Of a stretch of 40,046 nt of DNA, positions 18,979 through 36,619 are shown piece by piece. A model generated the notes under the pieces. It ran no database searches, was not told the origin of the DNA, and saw nothing but the letters and a program-made list of their open reading frames with translations. How positions within the stretch are numbered: the stretch's first letter is position 1; every line of letters begins with the position of its first letter. Location of the stretch: contig DATMIG010000191.1 of assembly GCA_035554335.1 (NCBI GenBank), positions 1 through 40,046 on the forward strand, read 5' to 3'. The position numbers and the translations under genes were made by a program. This stretch comes from Burkholderiales bacterium. Its GTDB lineage: Bacteria > Pseudomonadota > Gammaproteobacteria > Burkholderiales > SG8-39.

Positions 18979-19413
18979 TCAGGCGGCGTTCAGGGCTTTA
19001 TCGTCGTGGTCGATGCCGGCGGCCGCGTACAGGCGCTCCTGCGAGCGCAGGACCCGCTCGACGAGCTCGATGAGGCGCGGCGCGAGGAAAGGCTTCACCA
19101 GGCAGGCCGAGCCGAGCGCCTCGGCGTGGCTGCGCAGGTCGGAGCGGCCGGTCATGAAGATCACCGGCACCCAGGGCATCGCGGAGTCGGCGATCAGCGC
19201 GGAGACGAAGTCCAGGCCGCTCACGTACGGCATGTGCGCGTCGACGATCATCAGGTCGGGCTTCTCGTCGCGCACGCGCTGCGCGGCGCGGCGTGCGCTC
19301 TCGGCGAGGACCACGCGGTAGCCGGCGTCCTCGAGCTGGAGCCTCAGGAGCTCGCGAATCGGCTGCTCGTCGTCGACGACAAGGATGGTGCGGTGGCGGC
19401 TCTGTTCTTTCAT
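18979..19413 (-). CDS. Orphan single-domain response regulator (REC only)
   Basis: 144 aa with acidic pocket VVDDE, phospho-acceptor D in LMIVDAHMP, T in FMTG, and K in LVKPF. A strong SD (GAGGAGGAGG) lies upstream. There is no output domain and no histidine kinase gene in the window. Confidence 0.85.
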   Translation of the reverse strand: MKEQSRHRTILVVDDEQPIRELLRLQLEDAGYRVVLAESARRAAQRVRDEKPDLMIVDAHMPYVSGLDFVSALIADSAMPWVPVIFMTGRSDLRSHAEALGSACLVKPFLAPRLIELVERVLRSQERLYAAAGIDHDDKALNAA

Positions 19414-26052: not shown

Positions 26053-26056
<4 letters not shown>

Positions 26057-27901: not shown

Positions 27902-28013
27902 GCCGTCCGAGCAAATCCGACGCCTCCTCCTCCTCCTCTGGCTAGGGCGCGCTCGGGCGGCGAGCATTAATTTTCTGTCACACAAACCGGGACGAAAGTC
28001 CCGGTTTGTTTTT
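27902..28013 (+). ncRNA. CU-rich structured element C3: 11-bp stem enclosing a (CCU)5 loop, followed by an intrinsic terminator
   Basis: Stem GCCGTCCGAGC (27902..27912) pairs with GCTCGGGCGGC (27951..27961), including one G-U pair. The loop contains CCTCCTCCTCCTCCTC (27923..27938). The terminator is AAACCGGGAC-GAAA-GTCCCGGTTT (27984..28007) plus GTTTTTG. Confidence 0.45.
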
Positions 28014-28014
28014 G

Positions 28015-28020
28015 TATTAT
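28015..28020 (+). promoter_or_regulatory. -10-like TATTAT placed 6 nt before the Nudix ATG (possible leaderless promoter)
   Basis: TATTAT-CCCCGC-ATG. With standard -10 geometry the A of the ATG (28027) falls at +1. There is no SD between the terminator and the ATG. Confidence 0.3.
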
Positions 28021-28026
28021 CCCCGC

Positions 28027-28452
28027 ATGAAGGTTAAAGCCCAGCCGCGCGCCGCCGGCGTCGTCGTCTTCCGCCGCACCGGTCGCGGCGTGTACCTCCT
28101 GATCCTGCGGGCGTACAACAACTGGGACTTTCCCAAGGGCCTCGTCGATGCGGGCGAAGACCAGCTCAGCGCCGCGCAGCGCGAGCTGAGGGAAGAAACC
28201 GGCCTCGCCGGCGTCGACTTTCCGTTCGGCGACGAGTTCAAGGAGACGCTGCCCTACTCGAACAACAAGGTGGCGCGCTATTACCTCGGCGAGACCGAGG
28301 AAGTGGAGATCGAGCTGCCGGTATCCAAGGAGCTCGGCCGTGCCGAGCACCACGAGTACCGCTGGGTCACGTACGACGAAGCCGAGGATCTCCTGCCGCC
28401 GCGCCTCGCCGTCGTCCTCGACTGGGCGAGGCGCACCATTTCCGGTGGTTAG
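28027..28452 (+). CDS. Nudix hydrolase (Ap4A-hydrolase-like size and motif)
   Basis: 141 aa from ATG 28027 (MKVKAQPRAAGVVVFRR...), with Nudix box GLVDAGEDQLSAAQRELREETGL. Confidence 0.85.
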   Translation: MKVKAQPRAAGVVVFRRTGRGVYLLILRAYNNWDFPKGLVDAGEDQLSAAQRELREETGLAGVDFPFGDEFKETLPYSNNKVARYYLGETEEVEIELPVSKELGRAEHHEYRWVTYDEAEDLLPPRLAVVLDWARRTISGG

Positions 28453-28488: not shown

Positions 28489-31191
28489 CTAGCCGCTGTT
28501 GCGTAACCCTGCTGCCACGCCATTGATCGTGAGGTGAATCGCGCGCAGTAGCCGCTCGTCGCCGCCGTCGGCGCGATGGCGGCGAAGGAGCTCGACCTGC
28601 AGGTGGTTGAGCGGATCGAGGTAAGGGAAGCGATTGCGGATCGAGCGCGCGAGGGTCGGGTTGTCGGCGAGGAGCTGCGTCTGCTGCGTGATCGCCGCGA
28701 GCCAGCGCCGCGCGAGATGCCATTCGGTGTCGATCGCCGAGAATACGTTGGCGCGCAGCGTCGCATCCGGCACGAGCGACGCATAGCGCGAGGCGATGGC
28801 GAGGTCCGTCTTCGCGAGCACCATGTCCAGGTTGGACAACACCGCGCGGAAAAAGGGCCAGGCGCGGTACATCGCGCGCAGCTCATCCAGCTTGCCGCGC
28901 TTCGTGGCGATCCAGTCCTCCACCGCGGCGCCGAAACCGTACCACCCCGGCAGCATGAGGCGCGACTGGCTCCAGCTGAACACCCAGGGGATCGCGCGGA
29001 TGTCCTCGATGGTCTGCGTGCTTTTGCGCGACGCCGGCCGGCTGCCGATGTTGAGCTGCGAAAGCTCGGCGATCGGCGTCGACGCGCGCCAGTAGTCGAT
29101 GAAGCCCGGCGCCCGCACCAGCTCGCGGTAAGCGTCGAAGGCCGTCTGCGCCAGCGTCTCCATGATCTGTGCGTGGCGCGCGTGGGCTTCCTCGTCGCCG
29201 CGGCGCGCGAGGCTCGCTTCGAGCGTCGCCGCCGCCAGCGCCTCGAGGTTGCGGCGTCCGCTCTCCGGGTCGGCGTATTTGCTGGCGATGACCTCGCCCT
29301 GCTCCGTCAGCCGGAGCGCGCCGTCGACGGTTCCCGGCGGCTGCGCGAGCACCGCCTCGTAGCTCGGCCCTCCGCCGCGGCCGATGGTGCCGCCGCGACC
29401 ATGGAAGAGCCGCAGCCGCACACCGCGCGGCTTGCAGACGTCGCGCAACGCCTCCGCCGCCTTGTAGAGCGCCCAGTTGGACGCCACGTAGCCACCGTCC
29501 TTGTTGCTGTCCGAGTAGCCGAGCATCACCTCCTGCTCGTTCCGGCGTGCGTCGATCCAGGCGCGATAGAGCGGCAGCTCGAGCGCCTTCTTCATCACAT
29601 CACCACAGCTCGCAAGGTCCGCGATCGACTCGAAGAGCGGCACGATGTCGATCTCGAGCGGCGCCGGCGCGCCGGGGCGCACGAGCCCCGCCTCGCGCAG
29701 CAGCAGCCCGACCTCGAGCAGATCCGATACCGAGTCGCAATGCGAGATCACGTAGCGCGCCACCGAGCGCGCACCGAAGCGGCGGCGGCCCTGCGCCGCG
29801 GCCTCGAGGATGGCGAGCTCTTTCTGCACGAGCGGCGAGTATTCGACGTAGGGCGAGCGCAGCAGCCGCGGGCTCGACAGCTCCTTCTCCAGGAGCGCCA
29901 CGCGCTGCGCCTCATTCATCTCGCGATAGCCCGGCGTGCCGGCGCGGGCGAGAAGCTCGTCCACCGCCTGCTCGTGCATGTCCGAGCTTTGCCGCAGGTC
30001 CAGGGGCGCGAGATGGAAGCCGAAAACCGAGACCTTGCGCTCGAGCGAGCGCAGGCGACCGCTCGCCAGCAGCGCCGCGCCCTGCGCCTTGAGCGCGCCA
30101 GAAATGATCGCGAGCTCGGCCGCGAATTCGTCGGCGCTGCCGTAGGCGGGCGCCCTGTTCAGGGGCGGCGGGCTCGCCGCGTGCTGCGCGAGCGCTTCCG
30201 CCGTCGCAGCGACGCGCGCATAAATCCCGGTGAGCGCGCGCCGATACGGCTCGTCCTGGCGGTGCGGCGAGGGATCGCCCGAACGTTCGGCCAACGACGC
30301 CACCTCCGGCGGCACGTGCGCCTGGCGGCCGGACAGGCCGAGCTCGCGGCCGAGCGAGTTCACTTCGGCGAGGTAGTGCTCGAACACGAGCCGCGCATGC
30401 AGCACCTGCGCCGTGCGCAGCACCGCCGCGTCGACGTTCGGATTGCCGTCGCGATCGCCGCCGATCCAGCTGCCGACCGTGAGGAAAGGCGGCAGCCACG
30501 GCAGCTCGTGCATCTGGAAGCGCTCTTTCAGCGCGTGCTCGAACTCGCCGTAGAGCCGCGGCAGCTCCTGGAGGAACGTGAGGCGGAAGAAGTTGATGCC
30601 GTTCGTCACCTCGTCCGACACCTGCAGCTTGTGGAGCCGCAGCATCGAGGTCAGCCACAGGCGCAGCACCTCCGCGTGGATCGCCTCGTCGCGCTCCGCG
30701 TTCTGCGGCTGCGCGATGAGGCGCGCGATCTCGCGCTCGCAGTCGAGGATGCTCTGGCGCTGGACTTCGGTCGGATGGGCCGTGAGCACCGGGCTCACCT
30801 GGGCGCGCTCGAACCAGGCCAGCAGCTTTTCAACACCCACGGACTTCACTTGGTCGAGCGCGTACGAGAGGCTACCCGGCCGCCTCGGCGAGCCCGCAGC
30901 CGCATGCACGCGCCGCCGGCGGTGCTGCTGCTCGTCCTCGGCGATGTTGAGGAGGTGCGAGAAGAAGCTGAAGGCGCGCACCACGTCCATCGTCTGGTCG
31001 AGGTCGAGCGCGTTCAGCAGCGCATCGAGCCCGCCCTCGCCCGCGTTGTCCTTGCGGAAGGCGACGGCCGCCTGGCGGATGCCCTCGATGCGCTCGAACG
31101 TCTCGGCGCCCGCCTGGCCGCGGATCACCTCGCCGAGCAGGCGCCCGAGCAGGCGCCGGTCCTCGCGCAGCAGGTTCTCCTTGTCATCCAT
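28489..31191 (-). CDS. ppc: Phosphoenolpyruvate carboxylase
   Basis: 900 aa with motifs VLTAHPTE and GYSDSNKDGG and the C-terminus INGVAAGLRNSG. Confidence 0.95.
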   Translation of the reverse strand: MDDKENLLREDRRLLGRLLGEVIRGQAGAETFERIEGIRQAAVAFRKDNAGEGGLDALLNALDLDQTMDVVRAFSFFSHLLNIAEDEQQHRRRRVHAAAGSPRRPGSLSYALDQVKSVGVEKLLAWFERAQVSPVLTAHPTEVQRQSILDCEREIARLIAQPQNAERDEAIHAEVLRLWLTSMLRLHKLQVSDEVTNGINFFRLTFLQELPRLYGEFEHALKERFQMHELPWLPPFLTVGSWIGGDRDGNPNVDAAVLRTAQVLHARLVFEHYLAEVNSLGRELGLSGRQAHVPPEVASLAERSGDPSPHRQDEPYRRALTGIYARVAATAEALAQHAASPPPLNRAPAYGSADEFAAELAIISGALKAQGAALLASGRLRSLERKVSVFGFHLAPLDLRQSSDMHEQAVDELLARAGTPGYREMNEAQRVALLEKELSSPRLLRSPYVEYSPLVQKELAILEAAAQGRRRFGARSVARYVISHCDSVSDLLEVGLLLREAGLVRPGAPAPLEIDIVPLFESIADLASCGDVMKKALELPLYRAWIDARRNEQEVMLGYSDSNKDGGYVASNWALYKAAEALRDVCKPRGVRLRLFHGRGGTIGRGGGPSYEAVLAQPPGTVDGALRLTEQGEVIASKYADPESGRRNLEALAAATLEASLARRGDEEAHARHAQIMETLAQTAFDAYRELVRAPGFIDYWRASTPIAELSQLNIGSRPASRKSTQTIEDIRAIPWVFSWSQSRLMLPGWYGFGAAVEDWIATKRGKLDELRAMYRAWPFFRAVLSNLDMVLAKTDLAIASRYASLVPDATLRANVFSAIDTEWHLARRWLAAITQQTQLLADNPTLARSIRNRFPYLDPLNHLQVELLRRHRADGGDERLLRAIHLTINGVAAGLRNSG

Positions 31192-31194
31192 AGA

Positions 31195-31518
31195 ATGACT
31201 CTAATGGATTACCGCAGCCGCGCGCTAAAGCTGTTCCCTCACGTGTGCGCACGCTGCGCCCGAAACTTCCCGCCGAGTCGGCTGCGCGAACTGACGGTAC
31301 ATCACCGCGACGGCAACCACGACAACAACCCGCTCGACGGCTCCAACTGGGAGCTGCTCTGCATCTACTGCCACGAGAACGAGCATGCGCGCGCGGTCGA
31401 CTCGCAGGCCGGCGGCAACGCGAAGCAGACCGATCCCGCGCCCGCGAAGCATCGGCCGCTCGCCGGACTGGATAAGCTCATCACGGAAAAAAAGAAGCCG
31501 CCCGAGGGCGGCTTCTAG
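31195..31518 (+). CDS. yajD: YajD-family HNH nuclease
   Basis: ALKLFPHVCARCARNF...LRELTVHHRDGNHDNNPLDGSNWELLCIYCHENEH is collinear with E. coli YajD as I remember it. The start is ATG 31195 or 31204. These are the last 107 codons of the shadow ORF 28576..31518. Confidence 0.85.
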   Translation: MTLMDYRSRALKLFPHVCARCARNFPPSRLRELTVHHRDGNHDNNPLDGSNWELLCIYCHENEHARAVDSQAGGNAKQTDPAPAKHRPLAGLDKLITEKKKPPEGGF

Positions 31519-31662
31519 AAGGCCATTCCCCAGGGAGGAGGAGAAGAGAATGGCTAGGGGAGTAGGCATTCTGCGCATCCCCGCTTCCCTTGTCTGTCGC
31601 GCGCTCCGGAAAGTTAGGGTCGCAGCGGTGCGACAGGGATTTCCCTTACGAGGAAATTGCCG
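31487..31662 (-). ncRNA. CU-rich structured element C1: degP 3'UTR or 3'UTR-derived sRNA with CCUCCUCCC in a hairpin loop
   Basis: On the minus strand it starts right after the degP stop. A helix is formed by CTGTCGC and GCGACAG (31630..31636 with 31594..31600). A hairpin GCCATTC/GAATGGC (31522..31554) has the loop UCUUCUCCUCCUCCCUGGG. The terminator is GAAGCCGCCC/GGGCGGCTTC (31494..31515) plus T7 (31487..31493). Confidence 0.5.
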
Positions 31663-33153
31663 CTAGCCGATTTCAATTGGCACGAAGACTGTCGCATCCC
31701 CTCTACGCACGAGTAGCGCGACGTTGTCTTTCGCCTTCGCGACCATCGCGCGCAGCTCGTCCACCGACTTGACCGGCTTGCCGTTCACGGCGGTGATGAG
31801 ATCGCCGCGGCGCAGGCCCGCCTTCGCCGCGGGGCCGGTGGCGCGCTCCACGACCAGGCCGCTCGCGTTGCCGCCGAGCTGCTTCTTTTCTTCCGGGGTG
31901 AGCGCACGAACGGCGAGACCGAGCTTGCCGCCTTCTTCCGGATTGGGCTGCGCGCTGCCGTTCTTCGCCACCTGCTCGTTCTTCATCTCGCCGACGGCGA
32001 CGCCGAGCGTCTGCTTCTTGCCGCCGCGCCAGATCTCGAGCTCGCTCTTCGTGCCGGGCTTGGTCTGCGCGACGACCGGCGGCAGCTCGCTCGAGGTCTC
32101 GATCTTCTTGCCGTTGAAGGCGAGGATCACGTCGCCCGGCTGCAGGCCCGCCTTCTCCGCCGGACCGCCGGCCTCGACCGTGGAGACCAGCGCGCCCGTC
32201 GGGCGATCGAGGCCGAACGATCGGGCGAGCGACGCGGACACTTCCTGGATGCCGATGCCGAGGCGGCCGCGCTGCACCTTGCCGGTCTTGAGGAGCTGCT
32301 CCTCCACGTTCCTCGCCACGTCGATCGGAATCGCGAAGGCGAGACCCATGTAGCCGCCGGTGCGCGAGTAGATGGCGGAATTGATGCCGATCACCTGCCC
32401 CTGCATGTTGAAGAGCGGACCGCCGGAATTGCCGGGGTTCACCGCCGCATCGGTCTGGATGAACGGTACGTAGCTGCCCTCGGGCAGCGAGCGCGAGGTA
32501 CCGGAGACGATGCCGGAGGTGACGGTGTTCTCGAAGCCGAACGGCGAGCCGATGGCGATCACCCATTCGCCGACGCGCACCTTGGACGCATCGCCGAGCT
32601 TGACGGTCGGCAGATCCTTCGCGTCGATCTTGACCACGGCGATGTCGGTCGTGTGGTCGAGGCCCGCGACCTTGCCCTTGAACTCGCGGCGGTCGGCGAG
32701 CTTGACGCGCACCTCGTCCGCGCCCTCGACGACGTGCGCATTGGTGAGGATCACGCCGTTCGGGTCGACGATGAAGCCGGAGCCCATGCCCTCGCGCGGC
32801 ACCGGCGGCTGCGCGCCTTCCATGCCGAAGCGGCGCAGGAACTCGTTCAGCGGATTGTCGTCCTGCTCGTCATCGCCCTGGTCGTTTCCGCGACCTCCGA
32901 AGGCCTGCGGCTTCGGCGCCGAGACGGTCGCGCGGATGTTCACCACCGCGCCCTTGTTGGCTTCGGCGATGGCGGCGAAGTCGGGCAGCGCCTGGACGGG
33001 CGCGCCGGAGGCCTGTGCGCCGGTCGGACTACCGGGCGAAGCGGCCGAAGCGCCTTGCGCAGCCTGGGGTTTGGCCGGTTGCTCGGTGGCCGGGGAGCAC
33101 GCGGCGCCGACACAAGCGGTTATTAAGGAAAACGCAAGGATTGCTGGCTTCAT
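31663..33153 (-). CDS. degP: Periplasmic serine endoprotease, HtrA/DegP/DegQ/MucD family (two PDZ domains)
   Basis: 496 aa with a signal/lipobox-like N-terminus. The catalytic triad contexts are TNAHVV, DIAVVKI and GNSGGPLF. Two PDZ domains are present (GIGIQEVS..., LGLAVRALTPEE...). Confidence 0.9.
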   Translation of the reverse strand: MKPAILAFSLITACVGAACSPATEQPAKPQAAQGASAASPGSPTGAQASGAPVQALPDFAAIAEANKGAVVNIRATVSAPKPQAFGGRGNDQGDDEQDDNPLNEFLRRFGMEGAQPPVPREGMGSGFIVDPNGVILTNAHVVEGADEVRVKLADRREFKGKVAGLDHTTDIAVVKIDAKDLPTVKLGDASKVRVGEWVIAIGSPFGFENTVTSGIVSGTSRSLPEGSYVPFIQTDAAVNPGNSGGPLFNMQGQVIGINSAIYSRTGGYMGLAFAIPIDVARNVEEQLLKTGKVQRGRLGIGIQEVSASLARSFGLDRPTGALVSTVEAGGPAEKAGLQPGDVILAFNGKKIETSSELPPVVAQTKPGTKSELEIWRGGKKQTLGVAVGEMKNEQVAKNGSAQPNPEEGGKLGLAVRALTPEEKKQLGGNASGLVVERATGPAAKAGLRRGDLITAVNGKPVKSVDELRAMVAKAKDNVALLVRRGDATVFVPIEIG

Positions 33154-33183
33154 GGTCAGCCTCTGGACACTGGGGTTGACCCT

Positions 33184-33211
33184 TTAGATGCGGCGACCAA
33201 GGCGGACGTTC
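33184..33211 (-). promoter_or_regulatory. SigmaE (RpoE/AlgU)-type promoter candidate upstream of degP
   Basis: Minus strand: GAACGT (33211..33206), a 17-nt spacer, then TCTAA (33188..33184), about 30 nt upstream of ATG 33153. An SD AGAGG follows. This compares with the consensus GAACTT-N16/17-TCTNA as I remember it. Confidence 0.45.
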
Positions 33212-33216
33212 AATCC

Positions 33217-34662
33217 CTAATGCAGCCCCGTGCAAAAGCGGCCGACGTAGGGCAGGAGCTTCTCGGCGAAGGCCTTCGCCTCGGCATTGGCGGCCCGCAG
33301 ACGCACCATCGCCTCTTCGGCCTCGCGCCGCAGCTTTTCCACGTCCACGCCCAGGACCTTGCGATCGCGCACGATGAAACGGCCGCCCGCCATCACGTGC
33401 TCGACGCCGGTACCGTCCTCGCCGAACACGATCTGCTGCGCGAGGTCGTTGAGCGGCACGTAATGCAGCGCGGACAGGTCGAGGAAGACGAGGTCGGCCT
33501 TCCAGCCCTTTTCGATGCGCCCGATGCGGTCGAAGCCGAGCGCCTTCGCGCCGCCCTCGGTGGCCGCATGGAACGCCTCGCGCGCGCTGATCCATTCGCC
33601 GACCGAATGATCCTTGACGCGCGAGAGGTAGCACGCGAGCCGCATCGCCTCGAACGCGTTCAGGTTGTCGGAGCACGCCGTGCCGTCCGTGCCGACCGCC
33701 ACGTTGATCCCGGCCGCCAGCATGCGCCGCATGTCGGCGACGCCGGAACCCAGCTTCAGGTTGCTGCCCGGGTTGTGCGACACCGAAGCGCCGGCGTCGG
33801 CCAGGCGCTGGCGATCCTCGTCGCCCAGCCACACGCCGTGCGCCACGCAGAAGCCGGGGCTCAGCATCTCCAGCTTCGCAAGGTGCGCGACGAGCGAATG
33901 GCCATACACCTTCGGCGCGATGATCGACTGCATCTTCGATTCGGCCACGTGCATCTGCATGCCGAGGCCGTGCTCGCGCGCGAGATCGCGGCACTCGCGC
34001 AGGAATTCGTCCGAGCAGTGGTGCGGGATGCTGGGCCCGAGCGCGGGCTTCACCTGCTCGCGCGGATGCCGCCAGGCCGCCAATATCTTCCGGCAGGCCT
34101 CGATCGACTGCTCGTGCGGCGCCGCTTTCGCTTTCAGCGCTTCGCTTCTCAGCGGCTCGGGCAGCGCGTCCGCGAGACCGGGGACCGCCTCCCAGTAGCT
34201 CTTGTCCGTGATCTGCGGCGCGATCACCGCGCGCAGTCCGACCTTCGCATAGGCCTCGGCCACCGCCGCCATGCCTTCGACCGTCGGCAGCGGAAATTCC
34301 GCGAACATGTCGTACGCCGCGGTGCAGCCCTTGCGCGCCATCTCCGCCGCGCCAAGCGTGGCCGAGAGGGCCTTGTCTTCCAGCGTGCGGCGGCCGGTCG
34401 ACCACGGCACGGCCGTGAGATAGAGCTCCAGGTTGTAGCGGTCGAAAAGACCTTTGGCCAGGTTGGCGGTGGCATGGTTGTGCCCGTTGACGAGCCCCGG
34501 CATCAGCGCGCGCCCGGTCGCGTCGACGCGTTCCATGCCGTCGCCTTTCACGCTGCCCGGTGCAACGAGGTCCTTGATCGTGTCGCCCTCGACGATCACG
34601 TCGAGCGCCTCCGCGGCGAACGTCTTCGGCCGCACCACCTTCGCGCCATGGATGAGGATCAT
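33217..34662 (-). CDS. Amidohydrolase-superfamily protein (COG0402 chlorohydrolase/aminohydrolase-like; substrate unknown)
   Basis: 481 aa starting MILIHGAKVV, with the HxH metal motif LVNGHNH and motifs MHVAES and AVGTDG. Confidence 0.85.
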   Translation of the reverse strand: MILIHGAKVVRPKTFAAEALDVIVEGDTIKDLVAPGSVKGDGMERVDATGRALMPGLVNGHNHATANLAKGLFDRYNLELYLTAVPWSTGRRTLEDKALSATLGAAEMARKGCTAAYDMFAEFPLPTVEGMAAVAEAYAKVGLRAVIAPQITDKSYWEAVPGLADALPEPLRSEALKAKAAPHEQSIEACRKILAAWRHPREQVKPALGPSIPHHCSDEFLRECRDLAREHGLGMQMHVAESKMQSIIAPKVYGHSLVAHLAKLEMLSPGFCVAHGVWLGDEDRQRLADAGASVSHNPGSNLKLGSGVADMRRMLAAGINVAVGTDGTACSDNLNAFEAMRLACYLSRVKDHSVGEWISAREAFHAATEGGAKALGFDRIGRIEKGWKADLVFLDLSALHYVPLNDLAQQIVFGEDGTGVEHVMAGGRFIVRDRKVLGVDVEKLRREAEEAMVRLRAANAEAKAFAEKLLPYVGRFCTGLH

Positions 34663-34670
34663 GGCGGGAG

Positions 34671-34676
34671 ATTATC
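34671..34676 (-). promoter_or_regulatory. -10-like GATAAT placed 8 nt before the amidohydrolase ATG (possible leaderless promoter)
   Basis: Minus strand: TTTTTGTC-GATAAT-CTCCCGCC-ATG. There is no SD. The arrangement parallels 28008..28029. Confidence 0.25.
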
Positions 34677-34679
34677 GAC

Positions 34680-34865
34680 AAAAAGAAGCCGCCCGAAGGC
34701 GGCTGTCCAAGGGGTTGAGCCAGGTCCTAGGGAGTGCGGACGTTGGCTCCAGGGAGGAGGACTGCATTGTGCAAATCCGCGGCCGCGCTGTCTGTCACCC
34801 GGCTTTGGCTTTTGGGGTCCGAAACCGTTCGACAGGAAAATCCCCGACAGGGAAAATCCGTGCTG
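34680..34865 (-). ncRNA. CU-rich structured element C2, paralog of C1 (sRNA or leader upstream of the amidohydrolase gene)
   Basis: On the minus strand it carries two GGATTTTCC(C)TGTCG repeats (34830..34859) and a CTGTC/GACAG helix. It also has UCCUCCUCCCUGG (34749..34761) and a CUCCCUAGG loop (34726..34734). The terminator is AGCCGCC-TTCG-GGCGGCT plus TCTTTTTG (34680..34704), 24 of 25 nt identical to the C1 terminator. Confidence 0.5.
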
Positions 34866-34879
34866 ACCGCACTCCTGTA

Positions 34880-36619
34880 ATGCCTCTCCTTACGCTCCAG
34901 AACGCCGAGCTCGCCTTTGGCGACCTCCCGCTCCTCGACCGGGCCTCGTTCGCCCTCGAGGAGCGCGAGCGCATCGGGCTCATCGGGCGTAACGGCACCG
35001 GGAAATCGTCGCTGCTCGCCGTGCTCGCCGGCACGCGCATGCTCGACGACGGCGAGCTGAGGAAAACGGACGGGCTGCGCATCGTCTTCGTGCCGCAGGA
35101 GCCGGCCTTTCCCGCCGACACGCCGGCGCCCGCGCACAAGCTCGAGGAATTCTTCCACCGCCTGGGCATCGATCTCGAGCTCGATCCGGCGAAGGCGTCG
35201 GGCGGCGAGCGCAAGCGCGCGGCGCTCGCCGCCGCCTTTGCGCAGGAGCCGGACGTGCTGCTCCTCGACGAGCCGACCAACCACCTCGACATCGACGGCA
35301 TCGTCGCGCTGGAGAATCTCCTCGTGCGGCAGCCGGCGGCGATCTTCGTCACGCACGACCGCGCCTTTCTCGACCGCGTGGCGACGCGCATCCTCGAGCT
35401 CGACCGCGGGCGCCTCGTTTCCTTTCCCGGCAACTTTTCCGCCTATGAGCAGCGCAAGCGCGAGCAGCTCGCCGTCGAGGCCGTCGTGCATGCGAAGTTC
35501 GACAAGTTCTGGGCGCAGGAAGAAGCCTGGATCCGCAAGGGCATCGAGGCCCGGCGCACGCGCAACGAAGGCCGCGTGCGGCGCCTCGAGCGCCTGCGCG
35601 ACGAGCGCGCGGCGCGGCGCGAGCGCGCCGGGAACATCAGGCTCGCCATCGGCGAAGGGCAGCGCTCCGGAAAGCTGGTGGCCGAGCTCACCGAGGTGGC
35701 GAAGTCATTCGGTGGTCGCACGCTCATCCAGGGCCTCGACCTGATCGTCTCGCGCGGCGACCGCATCGGCCTCATCGGGCCCAACGGCGCCGGCAAGACC
35801 ACGCTCATCAAGCTGATCCTCGGCGAGCTCGCGCCCGACGCCGGGCGGGTGCGCATCGGCGCCAACGTGGCGCCGGCCTACTTCGACCAGCTGCGCGAAG
35901 TGCTGGACGAGGAAAAGACGGTCGCCGAAACGATCAGCCCCGGCTCCGAATGGGTCGACCTGACATCGGGCCGCAAGCACGTGATGAGCTATCTCGGCGA
36001 CTTCCTCTTCCCGCCGCGCCGCGCGAATTCGAAGGTCGCGATGCTCTCCGGCGGCGAGCGCAACCGCCTGCTGCTCGCGCGCCTCTTCTCGCGTCCGGCC
36101 AACGTGCTGGTGCTCGACGAGCCGACCAACGACCTCGACATCGAGTCGCTCGAGCTCCTCGAAACCGCGCTGCAGGACTATGCCGGCACGCTGCTCCTCG
36201 TCAGCCACGACCGCGCTTTCCTCGACAACGTGGTGACGCAGACGCTGGCCGCGCAAGGCGATGGCGTGTGGAAGGAGTACGCGGGCGGGTATAGCGATTA
36301 TGTGCAGCAGTCGCAAAATCAACCCCCCGCTCGCAAAGACAGCTCGCCTCCCCCCGCGGCGGGCGGGCGGCCGGAAAAGGCGCGCACAAAACTGAGCTAC
36401 AAGGAAACGCGGGAGCTGGAAGCGCTGCCGAAAGAAATCGAGACGCTCGAAGAAGAGCAGAAGCAGATCCAGGCGCGCATGCACGCCGCCGACTACTACA
36501 AGCAGCCGCCGGACATCCTGCGCGCGGATCGCGACCGCGAGGCCGAGATCGCGCGGCTGATCGACGACAAACTGGAGCGCTGGGCGGCGCTGGAGGAGAA
36601 AGCCAAACCGCCGGCGTGA
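34880..36619 (+). CDS. uup: ABC-F family ATPase, Uup-like (C-terminal coiled-coil tail)
   Basis: 579 aa from ATG 34880. It has two NBDs, with Walker A motifs GRNGTGKSS and GPNGAGKTT. SGGE signatures are present, along with LLLDEPTNHLD and LVLDEPTNDLD. The ABC-F linker reads FWAQEEAWIRKGIEARRTRNEGR. The C-terminus is charged and helical. Confidence 0.85.
   Translation: MPLLTLQNAELAFGDLPLLDRASFALEERERIGLIGRNGTGKSSLLAVLAGTRMLDDGELRKTDGLRIVFVPQEPAFPADTPAPAHKLEEFFHRLGIDLELDPAKASGGERKRAALAAAFAQEPDVLLLDEPTNHLDIDGIVALENLLVRQPAAIFVTHDRAFLDRVATRILELDRGRLVSFPGNFSAYEQRKREQLAVEAVVHAKFDKFWAQEEAWIRKGIEARRTRNEGRVRRLERLRDERAARRERAGNIRLAIGEGQRSGKLVAELTEVAKSFGGRTLIQGLDLIVSRGDRIGLIGPNGAGKTTLIKLILGELAPDAGRVRIGANVAPAYFDQLREVLDEEKTVAETISPGSEWVDLTSGRKHVMSYLGDFLFPPRRANSKVAMLSGGERNRLLLARLFSRPANVLVLDEPTNDLDIESLELLETALQDYAGTLLLVSHDRAFLDNVVTQTLAAQGDGVWKEYAGGYSDYVQQSQNQPPARKDSSPPPAAGGRPEKARTKLSYKETRELEALPKEIETLEEEQKQIQARMHAADYYKQPPDILRADRDREAEIARLIDDKLERWAALEEKAKPPA

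Follow-up and report, generated by a model that had tools for sequence, protein, structure and literature searches.

The Burkholderia double-hairpin small RNAs (sRNAs) ncS03, ncS05, ncS27 and ncS62 (RF02278, 'toxic small RNA') carry CU-rich unpaired stretches complementary to ribosome-binding sites (RBSs) and occur in 3-5 copies per genome; start regions account for 55-80% of the interactions predicted for them, and growth is slower when ncS27 is over-expressed (PMC5688073). Loops with CCUCCUCCC are a feature of cuckoo, CcsR and NfeR1 RNAs (PMC4615179). Cuckoo RNAs have been defined by 2-4 adjacent hairpins with CCUCCUCCC in each loop (Reinkensmeier & Giegerich 2015, PMC4615179), and among 2,680 genomes they were found in Alphaproteobacteria only, namely in Rhizobiales and Rhodobacteraceae (PMC4615179). 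Here we compare with these RNAs an element, C2, located on the minus strand at 34680-34865 of a 40,046-nt stretch of DNA (contig DATMIG010000191.1, hereafter the window), and its copy C1 at 31487-31660 on the same strand. We consider it likely that C2 is a stand-alone sRNA gene with C1 as its sibling in a multi-copy family, and that its RNA blocks translation by pairing with Shine-Dalgarno (SD) regions.

C1 and C2 as paralogues and the anatomy of their predicted RNAs

A preliminary description of the window had presented C2 as a second copy of C1, and all strings that it named were found on the minus strand where it had placed them. The copy relationship also held outside the terminator, on which that proposal had been made to depend: with the terminators removed, local alignment of C1 and C2 gave z = 7.3-12.1 under three scoring schemes, a score that was not reached in 1000 dinucleotide shuffles or in 946 other segments of the window. 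The sequence GGAWWTYCCTGTCG occurs exactly at 34830-34843 in C2 and at 31631-31644 in C1, with a chance expectation of 0.08 matches. It had been counted twice in C2; the further copy, GGATTTTCCCTGTCG at 34845-34859, is one base longer and thus a near-repeat rather than an exact one. Exact CCTCCTCCC occurs just twice in 40 kb, each time on the minus strand (31533-31541 in C1, 34752-34760 in C2), and the 13-mer TCCTCCTCCCTGG, which had been called identical, is indeed present in both (34749-34761 in C2, 31530-31542 in C1). Between the terminators AGCCGCCTTCGGGCGGCTTCTTTTT and AGCCGCCCTCGGGCGGCTTCTTTTT there is a single difference in 25 positions, in agreement with the 24 of 25 identical positions described before, and they belong to a repeat family, D8, with 26/28 identity. 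Both copies lie on the minus strand 3.19 kb apart and enclose degP and an amidohydrolase gene, as had been noted. The alignment was collinear, with the 5' CU site matching the 5' CU site and the loop matching the loop, and the modular evolution proposed from a swapped order of the CU motifs is therefore not needed; C1 and C2 differ in which of the homologous CU sites bears the longer CCUCCUCCC version. We conclude that C1 and C2 are true paralogues.

For the RNA part of the element we used a covariance model, R1, whose training alignment included C1 and C2 and whose E-values are rough. The predicted RNAs and their parts are as follows.

34681-34762, minus strand: predicted C2 sRNA, ~80 nt; R1 match at 34678-34762 with 73.2 bits, E = 6e-17
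34749-34761, minus strand: CU-rich site 1 of C2, UCCUCCUCCCUGG, single-stranded 5' end and putative anti-Shine-Dalgarno seed
34717-34749, minus strand: central hairpin of C2, GAGCCA/UGGCUC plus GUCC/GGAC, from the RNAalifold consensus and covariation
34680-34704, minus strand: terminator of C2, AGCCGCC-UUCG-GGCGGCU then UCUUUUU, from a terminator scan, repeat family D8 and compensatory variants
31487-31563, minus strand: predicted C1 sRNA, ~75 nt; R1 68.2 bits, E = 1e-15
31562-31554, minus strand: CU site 1 of C1, CUCCCCUAG
31554-31522, minus strand: hairpin of C1, its loop containing CCUCCUCCC (31541-31533)
31516-31493, minus strand: terminator of C1 plus U-tract, with the loop CUCG

The loop of the C2 hairpin, GCACUCCCUA at 34734-34726, represents CU-rich site 2; the loop enclosed by GAGCCA...TGGCTC has also been given as CUCCCUAGG. 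In both predicted RNAs the GC-rich terminator is followed by 5-8 U residues, and the CU stretches are unpaired and seed-like. The short form of C2 (82 nt) folded with -35.6 kcal/mol (z = -4.2) and that of C1 (75 nt) with -34.8 kcal/mol (z = -5.3), each with a minimum-free-energy (MFE) frequency of 0.71. In the family consensus, a variable part of 3-8 nt is followed by the unpaired site 1, CUUCCCCCYG (the family site homologous to site 1 of C2, also given as CUUCCCCCUG), by the hairpin GAGCCAuuCACCC - UCCCUCCCUU - GGGUauGGCUC with site 2 in its loop (consensus loop CCCUCCCUCCCUU), and by a ACCCCUAAGAG linker, GCCGCC-UUCG-GGCGGC and UUCUUUUUUU.

Family copies were collected in a metagenome scan with the pattern CTCCC-N12-42-GCCGCCNNNGGGCGGCTTNTTT, which biases both the census given below and the invariance of the terminator. 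The hairpin is absent from this pattern; the terminator is included, so that its invariance is partly circular, and terminator conservation was equal in copies that were reached through proteins. For hairpin and terminator together 97.5% of cells were paired, with 9 pairs showing double (compensatory) changes; none of five measures of pairing and covariation was reached by any of 500 shuffles, and slid controls fell to 23-53% paired. One copy (L068a) has a wholly different, compensated hairpin stem and another (L080a) the compensated terminator GGUCGCC/GGUGACC. A small open reading frame (ORF) starting from the ATG in CACAATG was considered and rejected: the distance between ATG and hairpin varies by non-multiples of three, and this ATG would not be transcribed in the preferred model.

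Likeness to double-hairpin, cuckoo and NmsR RNAs

In the window and in 20 family contigs, all Rfam 15 families stayed below their gathering scores. The best Rfam match of C1 was to ar14 (RF02344), with 34.8 bits and E = 5e-4 against a gathering score of 58.8; BjrC1505 and anti-hemB also matched C1 below threshold, and C2 had no such matches beyond its terminator; further family copies gave a similar picture. The ar14 model gave no match over C2 at E <= 10 and at most 27.9 bits on other family copies (27.9 on L137).

The Burkholderia double-hairpin sRNAs share with the family described here the order Burkholderiales and a high GC content. They measure 57-92 nt and consist almost wholly of two hairpins of which the second is the terminator, similar to C1 and C2 (PMC5688073), and as in our family, several homologous copies per genome share an upstream motif (PMC5688073). 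We likewise found two hairpins and unpaired CU stretches; the window has two copies, and single contigs carry as many as three. Neither the hairpin (GAGCCA...UGGCUC) nor the terminator shares its sequence with the double-hairpin sRNAs, and tandem arrays occur in our family and not in the Burkholderia RNAs. RF02278 was absent at E <= 10 over 31300-35000 and at E <= 1 over five contigs with nine copies. The match in architecture would indicate functional likeness to the double-hairpin sRNAs and not homology.

Cuckoo RNAs (ar14/NfeR1, SmelA075/A099, CcsR1-4 = RSs0680a-d) have the same CCUCCUCCC motif in a hairpin loop as C1, and like our family they are multi-copy siblings with intrinsic terminators that occur in varied neighbourhoods and clusters. 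They differ from C1 and C2 in the number of motif hairpins: C1 has a single one and a terminator loop CUCG, and C2 has the exact motif in a single-stranded part and GCACUCCCUA as its hairpin loop. They also differ in their alphaproteobacterial hosts, whereas the ProRS and Ppc proteins of the window were closest to Burkholderiales and family copies were present on contig DATLDY010000064.1 of a metagenome-assembled genome (MAG). Neisseria NmsR (RcoF / NgncR_162-163), as far as its literature description goes, has a betaproteobacterial host, tandem siblings and two CU-rich unpaired stretches complementary to RBSs (PMC5688073); by the same description, it differs from our family in host order, GC content and stem sequences. 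We detected no Rfam or sequence similarity to NmsR in the window or the family contigs searched. Burkholderia anti-hemB (ncS04, RF02837) resembles C1 in having CUCCUCCCUG in a hairpin loop followed by a terminator. It aligned to C1 with 25.6 bits (E = 0.005, gathering score 49.5) over motif and terminator only, and did not match C2. In summary, the element would work like the class of double-hairpin, cuckoo and NmsR RNAs and has no detectable membership in a curated family; convergence on an anti-Shine-Dalgarno motif is a simpler reading than shared ancestry with cuckoo RNAs.

The promoter and the upstream control region

Promoters recognized by sigma-70 have the geometry TTGACA-N17-TATAAT. 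Upstream of the predicted RNA, an alignment of 51 sequences (A3) showed two conserved blocks, nnGACA (G46/T5, A51, C51, A44/G7) and nAnAAT (A51, A45, A50, T51), whose spacing was 17 nt in 50 copies and 16 nt in a single copy. Positions A2, A5 and T6 of the -10 block and A4 and C5 of the -35 block were invariant or nearly so, the spacer columns carried 0.2-0.9 bit each, and the -35 variants ATGACA and CTGACA shift toward the TTGACA consensus. All four copies that are independent of the model (in L170 and L174) have CAGACA-N17-CA(C/G)AAT. By its geometry, nnGACA-N17-nAnAAT is the predicted sigma-70-type promoter of each unit. Divergent neighbour genes begin as near as 4-40 nt upstream of the conserved block, and the promoter must therefore sit inside the unit. 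Transcription should start ~7 nt past the -10 box, directly at CU site 1; the 5' end of C2 is thus placed from the -10 box to within +/-4 nt, and its 3' end would lie in the U-tract of the terminator. The sites in the two copies are as follows.

34789-34794, minus strand: -35 hexamer of C2, CAGACA, within GACAGACA; from the family columns and the 17-nt spacing
34766-34771, minus strand: -10 hexamer of C2, CACAAT; from the family columns
34797-34860, minus strand: upstream control region of C2, with boxes conserved at fixed spacing among family copies
34859-34845 and 34843-34830, minus strand: near-repeats GGATTTTCC(C)TGTCG of C2
34836-34830, minus strand: Box A of C2, CCTGTCG
34820-34810, minus strand: Box B of C2, GGACCCCAAAA
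31568-31596, minus strand: core promoter of C1, with -35 CAGACA (31596-31591), a 17-nt spacer and -10 CAGAAT (31573-31568)
31597-31660, minus strand: upstream control region of C1, with the hairpin/palindrome ATTTCC..GGGAAAT; it begins 3 nt past the degP stop
31644-31631, minus strand: GGAAATCCCTGTCG of C1
31621-31613, minus strand: Box B of C1, GACCCTAAC

Given this geometry, the 5' half of the element, with the GGAWWTYCCTGTCG repeats, CTGTC/GACAG and GACAGACA, would be control sequence in the DNA and not RNA. The preliminary description had treated these three as RNA modules, which did not hold, as GACAGACA contains the -35 box. Its independent sRNA is best taken as a gene of its own that ends at the terminator at ~34681, but the 5' boundary it gave did not hold. 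The long-range CTGTC/GACAG helix it had proposed was paired in 76.8% of cells, compared with 73.7% in shuffles; its central pair was not formed in 25 of 51 sequences, and 48 of 500 shuffles attained its covariation score. RNAalifold found no consensus structure upstream of the -10 box. Pairing between boxes A and B performed weakly better than the CTGTC/GACAG helix, and an RNA helix of the two boxes was rejected because of its weak covariation.

Across the family, the upstream modules lie at about -50 to -90 with fixed spacing and comprise GGAWWTYCCTGTCG repeats (Box A), GACCCYAA or TTTACA..AAAT (Box B), and GGGAAWTTCCC. A position weight matrix (PWM) of these boxes matched family copies only in 1.07 Mb. 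Boxes A and B as a sigma-32 or extracytoplasmic function (ECF) promoter were also rejected: the spacing is wrong, they are unlike the sigma-32-type promoters of this lineage, and the PWM hits no other genes. An upstream (UP)-element-like role or an activator site is possible for them, judging from their position.

The conservation of these boxes at fixed spacing is also what favours a longer sRNA of ~115-120 nt, which would start upstream of GACAGACA and use boxes A and B as an unusual promoter. Its extent would be that of the element as first described without the first 40 nt, the same as the extent of the Rfam ar14 alignment; the sub-threshold ar14 and BjrC1505 alignments reach into this extra 5' region, and GCGACAGACAG is conserved beyond a typical -35 box. 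We regard this longer RNA as unlikely. The spacing of 13 nt between Box A and AAAT is no standard sigma-70 geometry, the boxes do not resemble the sigma-32 promoters of the lineage, and the constant length of the variable 17-nt spacer would be left unaccounted for. RNAalifold gave no structure in the extra 5' domain, and the long forms folded poorly (C2 z = -1.9, MFE frequency 0.03; C1 z = -2.5, MFE frequency 0.13); a long-RNA model with a 5' hairpin was dropped for the same lack of consensus structure and good folds. The second and third copies in tandem arrays ('follower' copies) lack boxes A and B, carrying GAAATG...GTTTTTCC in their place, yet they retain the -35/-10 pair. This suggests two types of promoter-upstream sequence and possibly differential regulation of siblings.

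Two further observations concern the same region. The palindrome GGGAAWTTCCC lies directly 5' of Box A (31641-31650 and 34841-34853, minus strand) and was also seen in L043, L045, L128, L146 and L174; it is restricted to copies of the window's own sub-lineage and is a possible transcription-factor site. On the plus strand, TCGACA-N17-GAAAAT (34829-34857), the reverse complement of the GGATTTTCC(C)TGTCG repeats, was the sole sigma-70-like site from a promoter scan of 31300-35000, and may serve as a promoter of uup with a leader of ~16 nt before the ATG at 34880.

Family contexts, neighbouring genes and proposed function

Some 50 contigs, metagenomic or from MAGs, together carry at least 70 copies of the family, single or in tandem arrays of 2-3, and nhmmer on the scan results gave at least 66 full-length copies, at least 60 of them unique. 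All family contigs among the matches listed have a GC content of 61-70%. R1 matches split into at least 51 at >=58 bits and a remainder at <=42 bits, the latter being unrelated terminators caught by the scan pattern. On the window itself, with filters off, R1 gave 73.2 bits for C2 and 68.2 bits for C1, and the next full-length match had 11.8 bits. As C1 and C2 were in the training set, independent support comes from four copies outside the model that were reached via Ppc homologues and scored 66-80 bits: L174 has the orthologues of C1 and C2, and L170 has one copy on each side of degP. A model built from C1 and C2 had been expected to delimit a family, and the nhmmer and R1 searches did so. 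R1 found no copy over 369 kb from 42 GTDB loci or in L171-L173, and the family therefore appears lineage-restricted; at 27 betaproteobacterial GTDB loci (amidohydrolase 56-73% identity) there was another upstream gene and no copy of the element, which bounds the distribution but says nothing on conservation.

In the window, genes were placed by ORF and third-position GC (GC3) analysis together with Pfam, and surround the two copies as follows.

34880 (ATG), plus strand: uup (ABC-F), divergent from C2
34662-33217, minus strand: amidohydrolase gene
33153-31663, minus strand: degP
31195-31518, plus strand: HNH/YajD-like gene (107 aa), convergent on C1
31191-28489, minus strand: ppc

C2 occupies the 217-nt gap between the ATGs of the amidohydrolase gene (34662) and uup (34880). 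The window has a GC content of 68%. Its ProRS showed 84-86% identity to proteins of NCBI 'Burkholderiales bacterium' MAGs and its Ppc 79-85% to proteins of the same MAGs, and the GTDB relatives of the amidohydrolase were all betaproteobacterial with at most 73% identity; on these grounds the host belongs to an uncultured soil Burkholderiales lineage. A look-up did not find the exact record of the window amidohydrolase protein, and its relatives were reached via homologues.

The order uup / C2 / amidohydrolase / degP / C1 / HNH is kept in relatives (amidohydrolase homologues 80-100% identity). Orthologues of C2 were found in L043, L044, L045 and L046 and one of C1 in L045, and each is nearer to its positional counterpart than to its paralogue, which indicates that the duplication predates these species. 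Elsewhere the neighbours vary and may be convergent, divergent or other copies in tandem: two more copies stand in different settings in L047, one of them after an amidohydrolase gene, and tandem arrays of 2-3 copies with a period of ~155 nt occur in L114 (2065-2503), L137 (985-1423), L069 (674-1116), L068 (3651-3959), L160, L166 and L121. In L170 (NCBI Burkholderiales MAG GCA_035525655.1, DATLDY010000064.1), copies at 51-132 and 1770-1852 bracket degP with no amidohydrolase gene between them; the element may have been associated with degP before it was with the amidohydrolase gene. An own promoter and an own intrinsic terminator, conserved with the RNA across these contexts, are what is expected of an independent sRNA gene, its transcription being predicted.

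These contexts bear on the suggestion, made in the preliminary description, that C2 is a terminator-containing leader of the amidohydrolase gene. As a cis-acting leader or attenuator, C2 would form the 5' end of an amidohydrolase(-degP) transcript, with read-through into the gene controlled by the C2 terminator. In its favour, 18 nt separate the end of the terminator from the ATG, a strong independent promoter is not apparent, and the position upstream of the amidohydrolase gene is kept in L043, L045, L128 and L174. We nevertheless judge this reading very unlikely. The unit is also found downstream of degP (C1), after the amidohydrolase gene (L047), in tandem and before convergent genes, and is thus not tied to one regulated gene; the RNAalifold consensus showed no conserved antiterminator pairing such as an attenuation leader would have, and terminator and ATG lie anywhere from 18 to 50 nt apart, depending on the orthologue. 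A -10-like GATAAT (34671-34676, minus strand) follows directly on the C2 terminator, 8 nt before the ATG at 34662 and with no Shine-Dalgarno sequence. CATAAG (L174:6206-6213) and CGTAAG (L043, ~5965) occupy the same position, the L174 site likewise 8-9 nt from an amidohydrolase ATG with no Shine-Dalgarno sequence. This suggests that GATAAT is a possible promoter of a leaderless amidohydrolase mRNA, rather than that the gene depends on read-through. Finally, degP has a sigma-32-type promoter of its own, ATTGAAC-N14-CCGCATCTAAAG (33214-33182, minus strand), in the 63-nt spacer past the amidohydrolase stop, and CTTGAAC-N14-CCCATCTAAG precedes degP in L170 (150-185); degP is probably a heat-shock gene and not simply co-transcribed with the amidohydrolase gene.

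The sigma-32-type promoters of the lineage (hsp20-lon, degP, L170 degP) have the form (C/A)TTGAAC-N13-14-CC(G)C(A/C)(T/A)CT(A/T)A. The hsp20-lon site, CTTGAAC-N13-CCGCCACTTAAG (26508-26477, minus strand), stands before an hsp20-like gene directly upstream of lon. Here a 938-aa 'Lon' ORF (26472/26445-23627, minus strand) is over-extended, and lon starts at the ATG at 26054. In the same part of the window, a (CCT)5 run (27923-27937, plus strand) lies between a LysR-type regulator gene (27480-26530, minus strand) and a NUDIX gene (28006-28452, plus strand).

At the other end of the locus, C1 begins 3 nt past the degP stop with no terminator between, so degP transcripts should end at the C1 terminator and C1 can double as a 3' untranslated region (3'UTR). 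The convergent HNH gene shares its last nine codons (...KKKPPEGGF*) with the C1 terminator, the codons being encoded by the reverse complement of the hairpin, and this overlap is kept in L045 and L174; from its sequence, the C1 terminator is predicted to be bidirectional and partly coding. A 980-aa ORF on the plus strand (28576-31518) is an artefact in which the antisense of ppc is fused to HNH.

That C1 lies between convergent genes, as units of the family often do, could also point to a dispersed non-genic repeat of the repetitive extragenic palindrome (REP/BIME) or miniature inverted-repeat transposable element (MITE) type that merely supplies terminators. The element is multi-copy, intergenic and ~150 nt in size, and its inverted repeats CTGTCGC...GCGACAG would fit. 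A repeat of this kind without strand bias had been named in advance as a possible outcome, and we found the opposite: every copy has the same promoter-RNA-terminator polarity. Conservation peaks in the unpaired CU motifs and the promoter hexamers rather than at the ends of the element, covariation in the hairpin stem goes together with a conserved loop, and syntenic orthologous copies are retained between genomes with 85-89% identical proteins. Neither terminal inverted repeats nor target-site duplications came to light, no formal search for the latter having been made. We hold a dispersed repeat to be highly improbable.

Under the reading that we prefer, that of a stand-alone sRNA gene, the sigma-70-type promoter of each unit would produce an RNA of ~75-85 nt that is CU-rich and single-stranded at its 5' end and continues with a hairpin, whose loop is again CU-rich, and a GC-rich terminator ending in a U-tail. 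The CU stretches (CCUCCUCCC, CUCCCU) are similar to the anti-Shine-Dalgarno at the 3' end of 16S rRNA, and the RNA may therefore pair in trans with the Shine-Dalgarno regions of several mRNAs, which would make up its putative regulon; such pairing would keep translation from initiating, and Hfq would probably be bound at the U-tail. By analogy with the described RNAs, trans-acting occlusion of the ribosome-binding site on multiple mRNAs is the most likely mode of action. Target prediction inside the window was uninformative, as any strong SD is complementary, for example AGGAGGAGG before the gene starting at 19413.

The same near-identity of the CU motifs to the anti-Shine-Dalgarno, which lets them pair with any strong SD, would also suit an RNA that titrates a protein (e.g. 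ribosomal protein S1 or another pyrimidine-binding factor) or competes globally with 16S rRNA and pairs with no specific mRNA, and many sibling copies are typical of titrating RNAs. No GGA-type or other known protein-sponge motif is present, and the closest analogues, NfeR1, CcsR, ncS27 and NmsR, were described as base-pairing regulators (PMC5688073, PMC4615179). The sequence does not discriminate between titration and mRNA pairing, and we give titration next to no probability.

Several points weigh against an independent sRNA gene that acts on SD regions. Boxes A and B are conserved upstream and find no explanation under it, the -35 hexamer CAGACA is a weak match to TTGACA, so that an activator may be needed, and the C2 terminator lies close enough to the amidohydrolase ATG that some read-through is possible. 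The bias of the scan pattern has been mentioned above, and start site, expression and targets are predictions for an uncultured lineage. In a more novel reading, the family would be a betaproteobacterial branch of the cuckoo/ar14 lineage, through shared ancestry or lateral transfer, and/or C1, C2 and the sigma-32-driven degP would form a functional module, with C1 as degP 3'UTR and read-through at C2 feeding the operon. We regard this as rather unlikely; if the degP module were real, it would represent a global translational brake coupled to the envelope and protein-quality stress response.

The copies make up a new and well-defined sRNA family, familiar in type and uncatalogued in Rfam 15. 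For a host lineage known from metagenomes only, sequence was sufficient to propose gene boundaries, namely a promoter, an RNA of ~80 nt and a terminator, and R1 together with the promoter signature can be used for annotating such genes in MAGs. The promoter alignment further offers a rare empirical look at sigma-70 geometry in an uncultured high-GC lineage. The sibling strategy with an anti-Shine-Dalgarno motif and exact CCUCCUCCC, for cuckoo RNAs reported in Alphaproteobacteria only, is now also seen in soil Burkholderiales, and its recurrence beside the double-hairpin and NmsR RNAs supports the view of a recurrent solution for global translational control.

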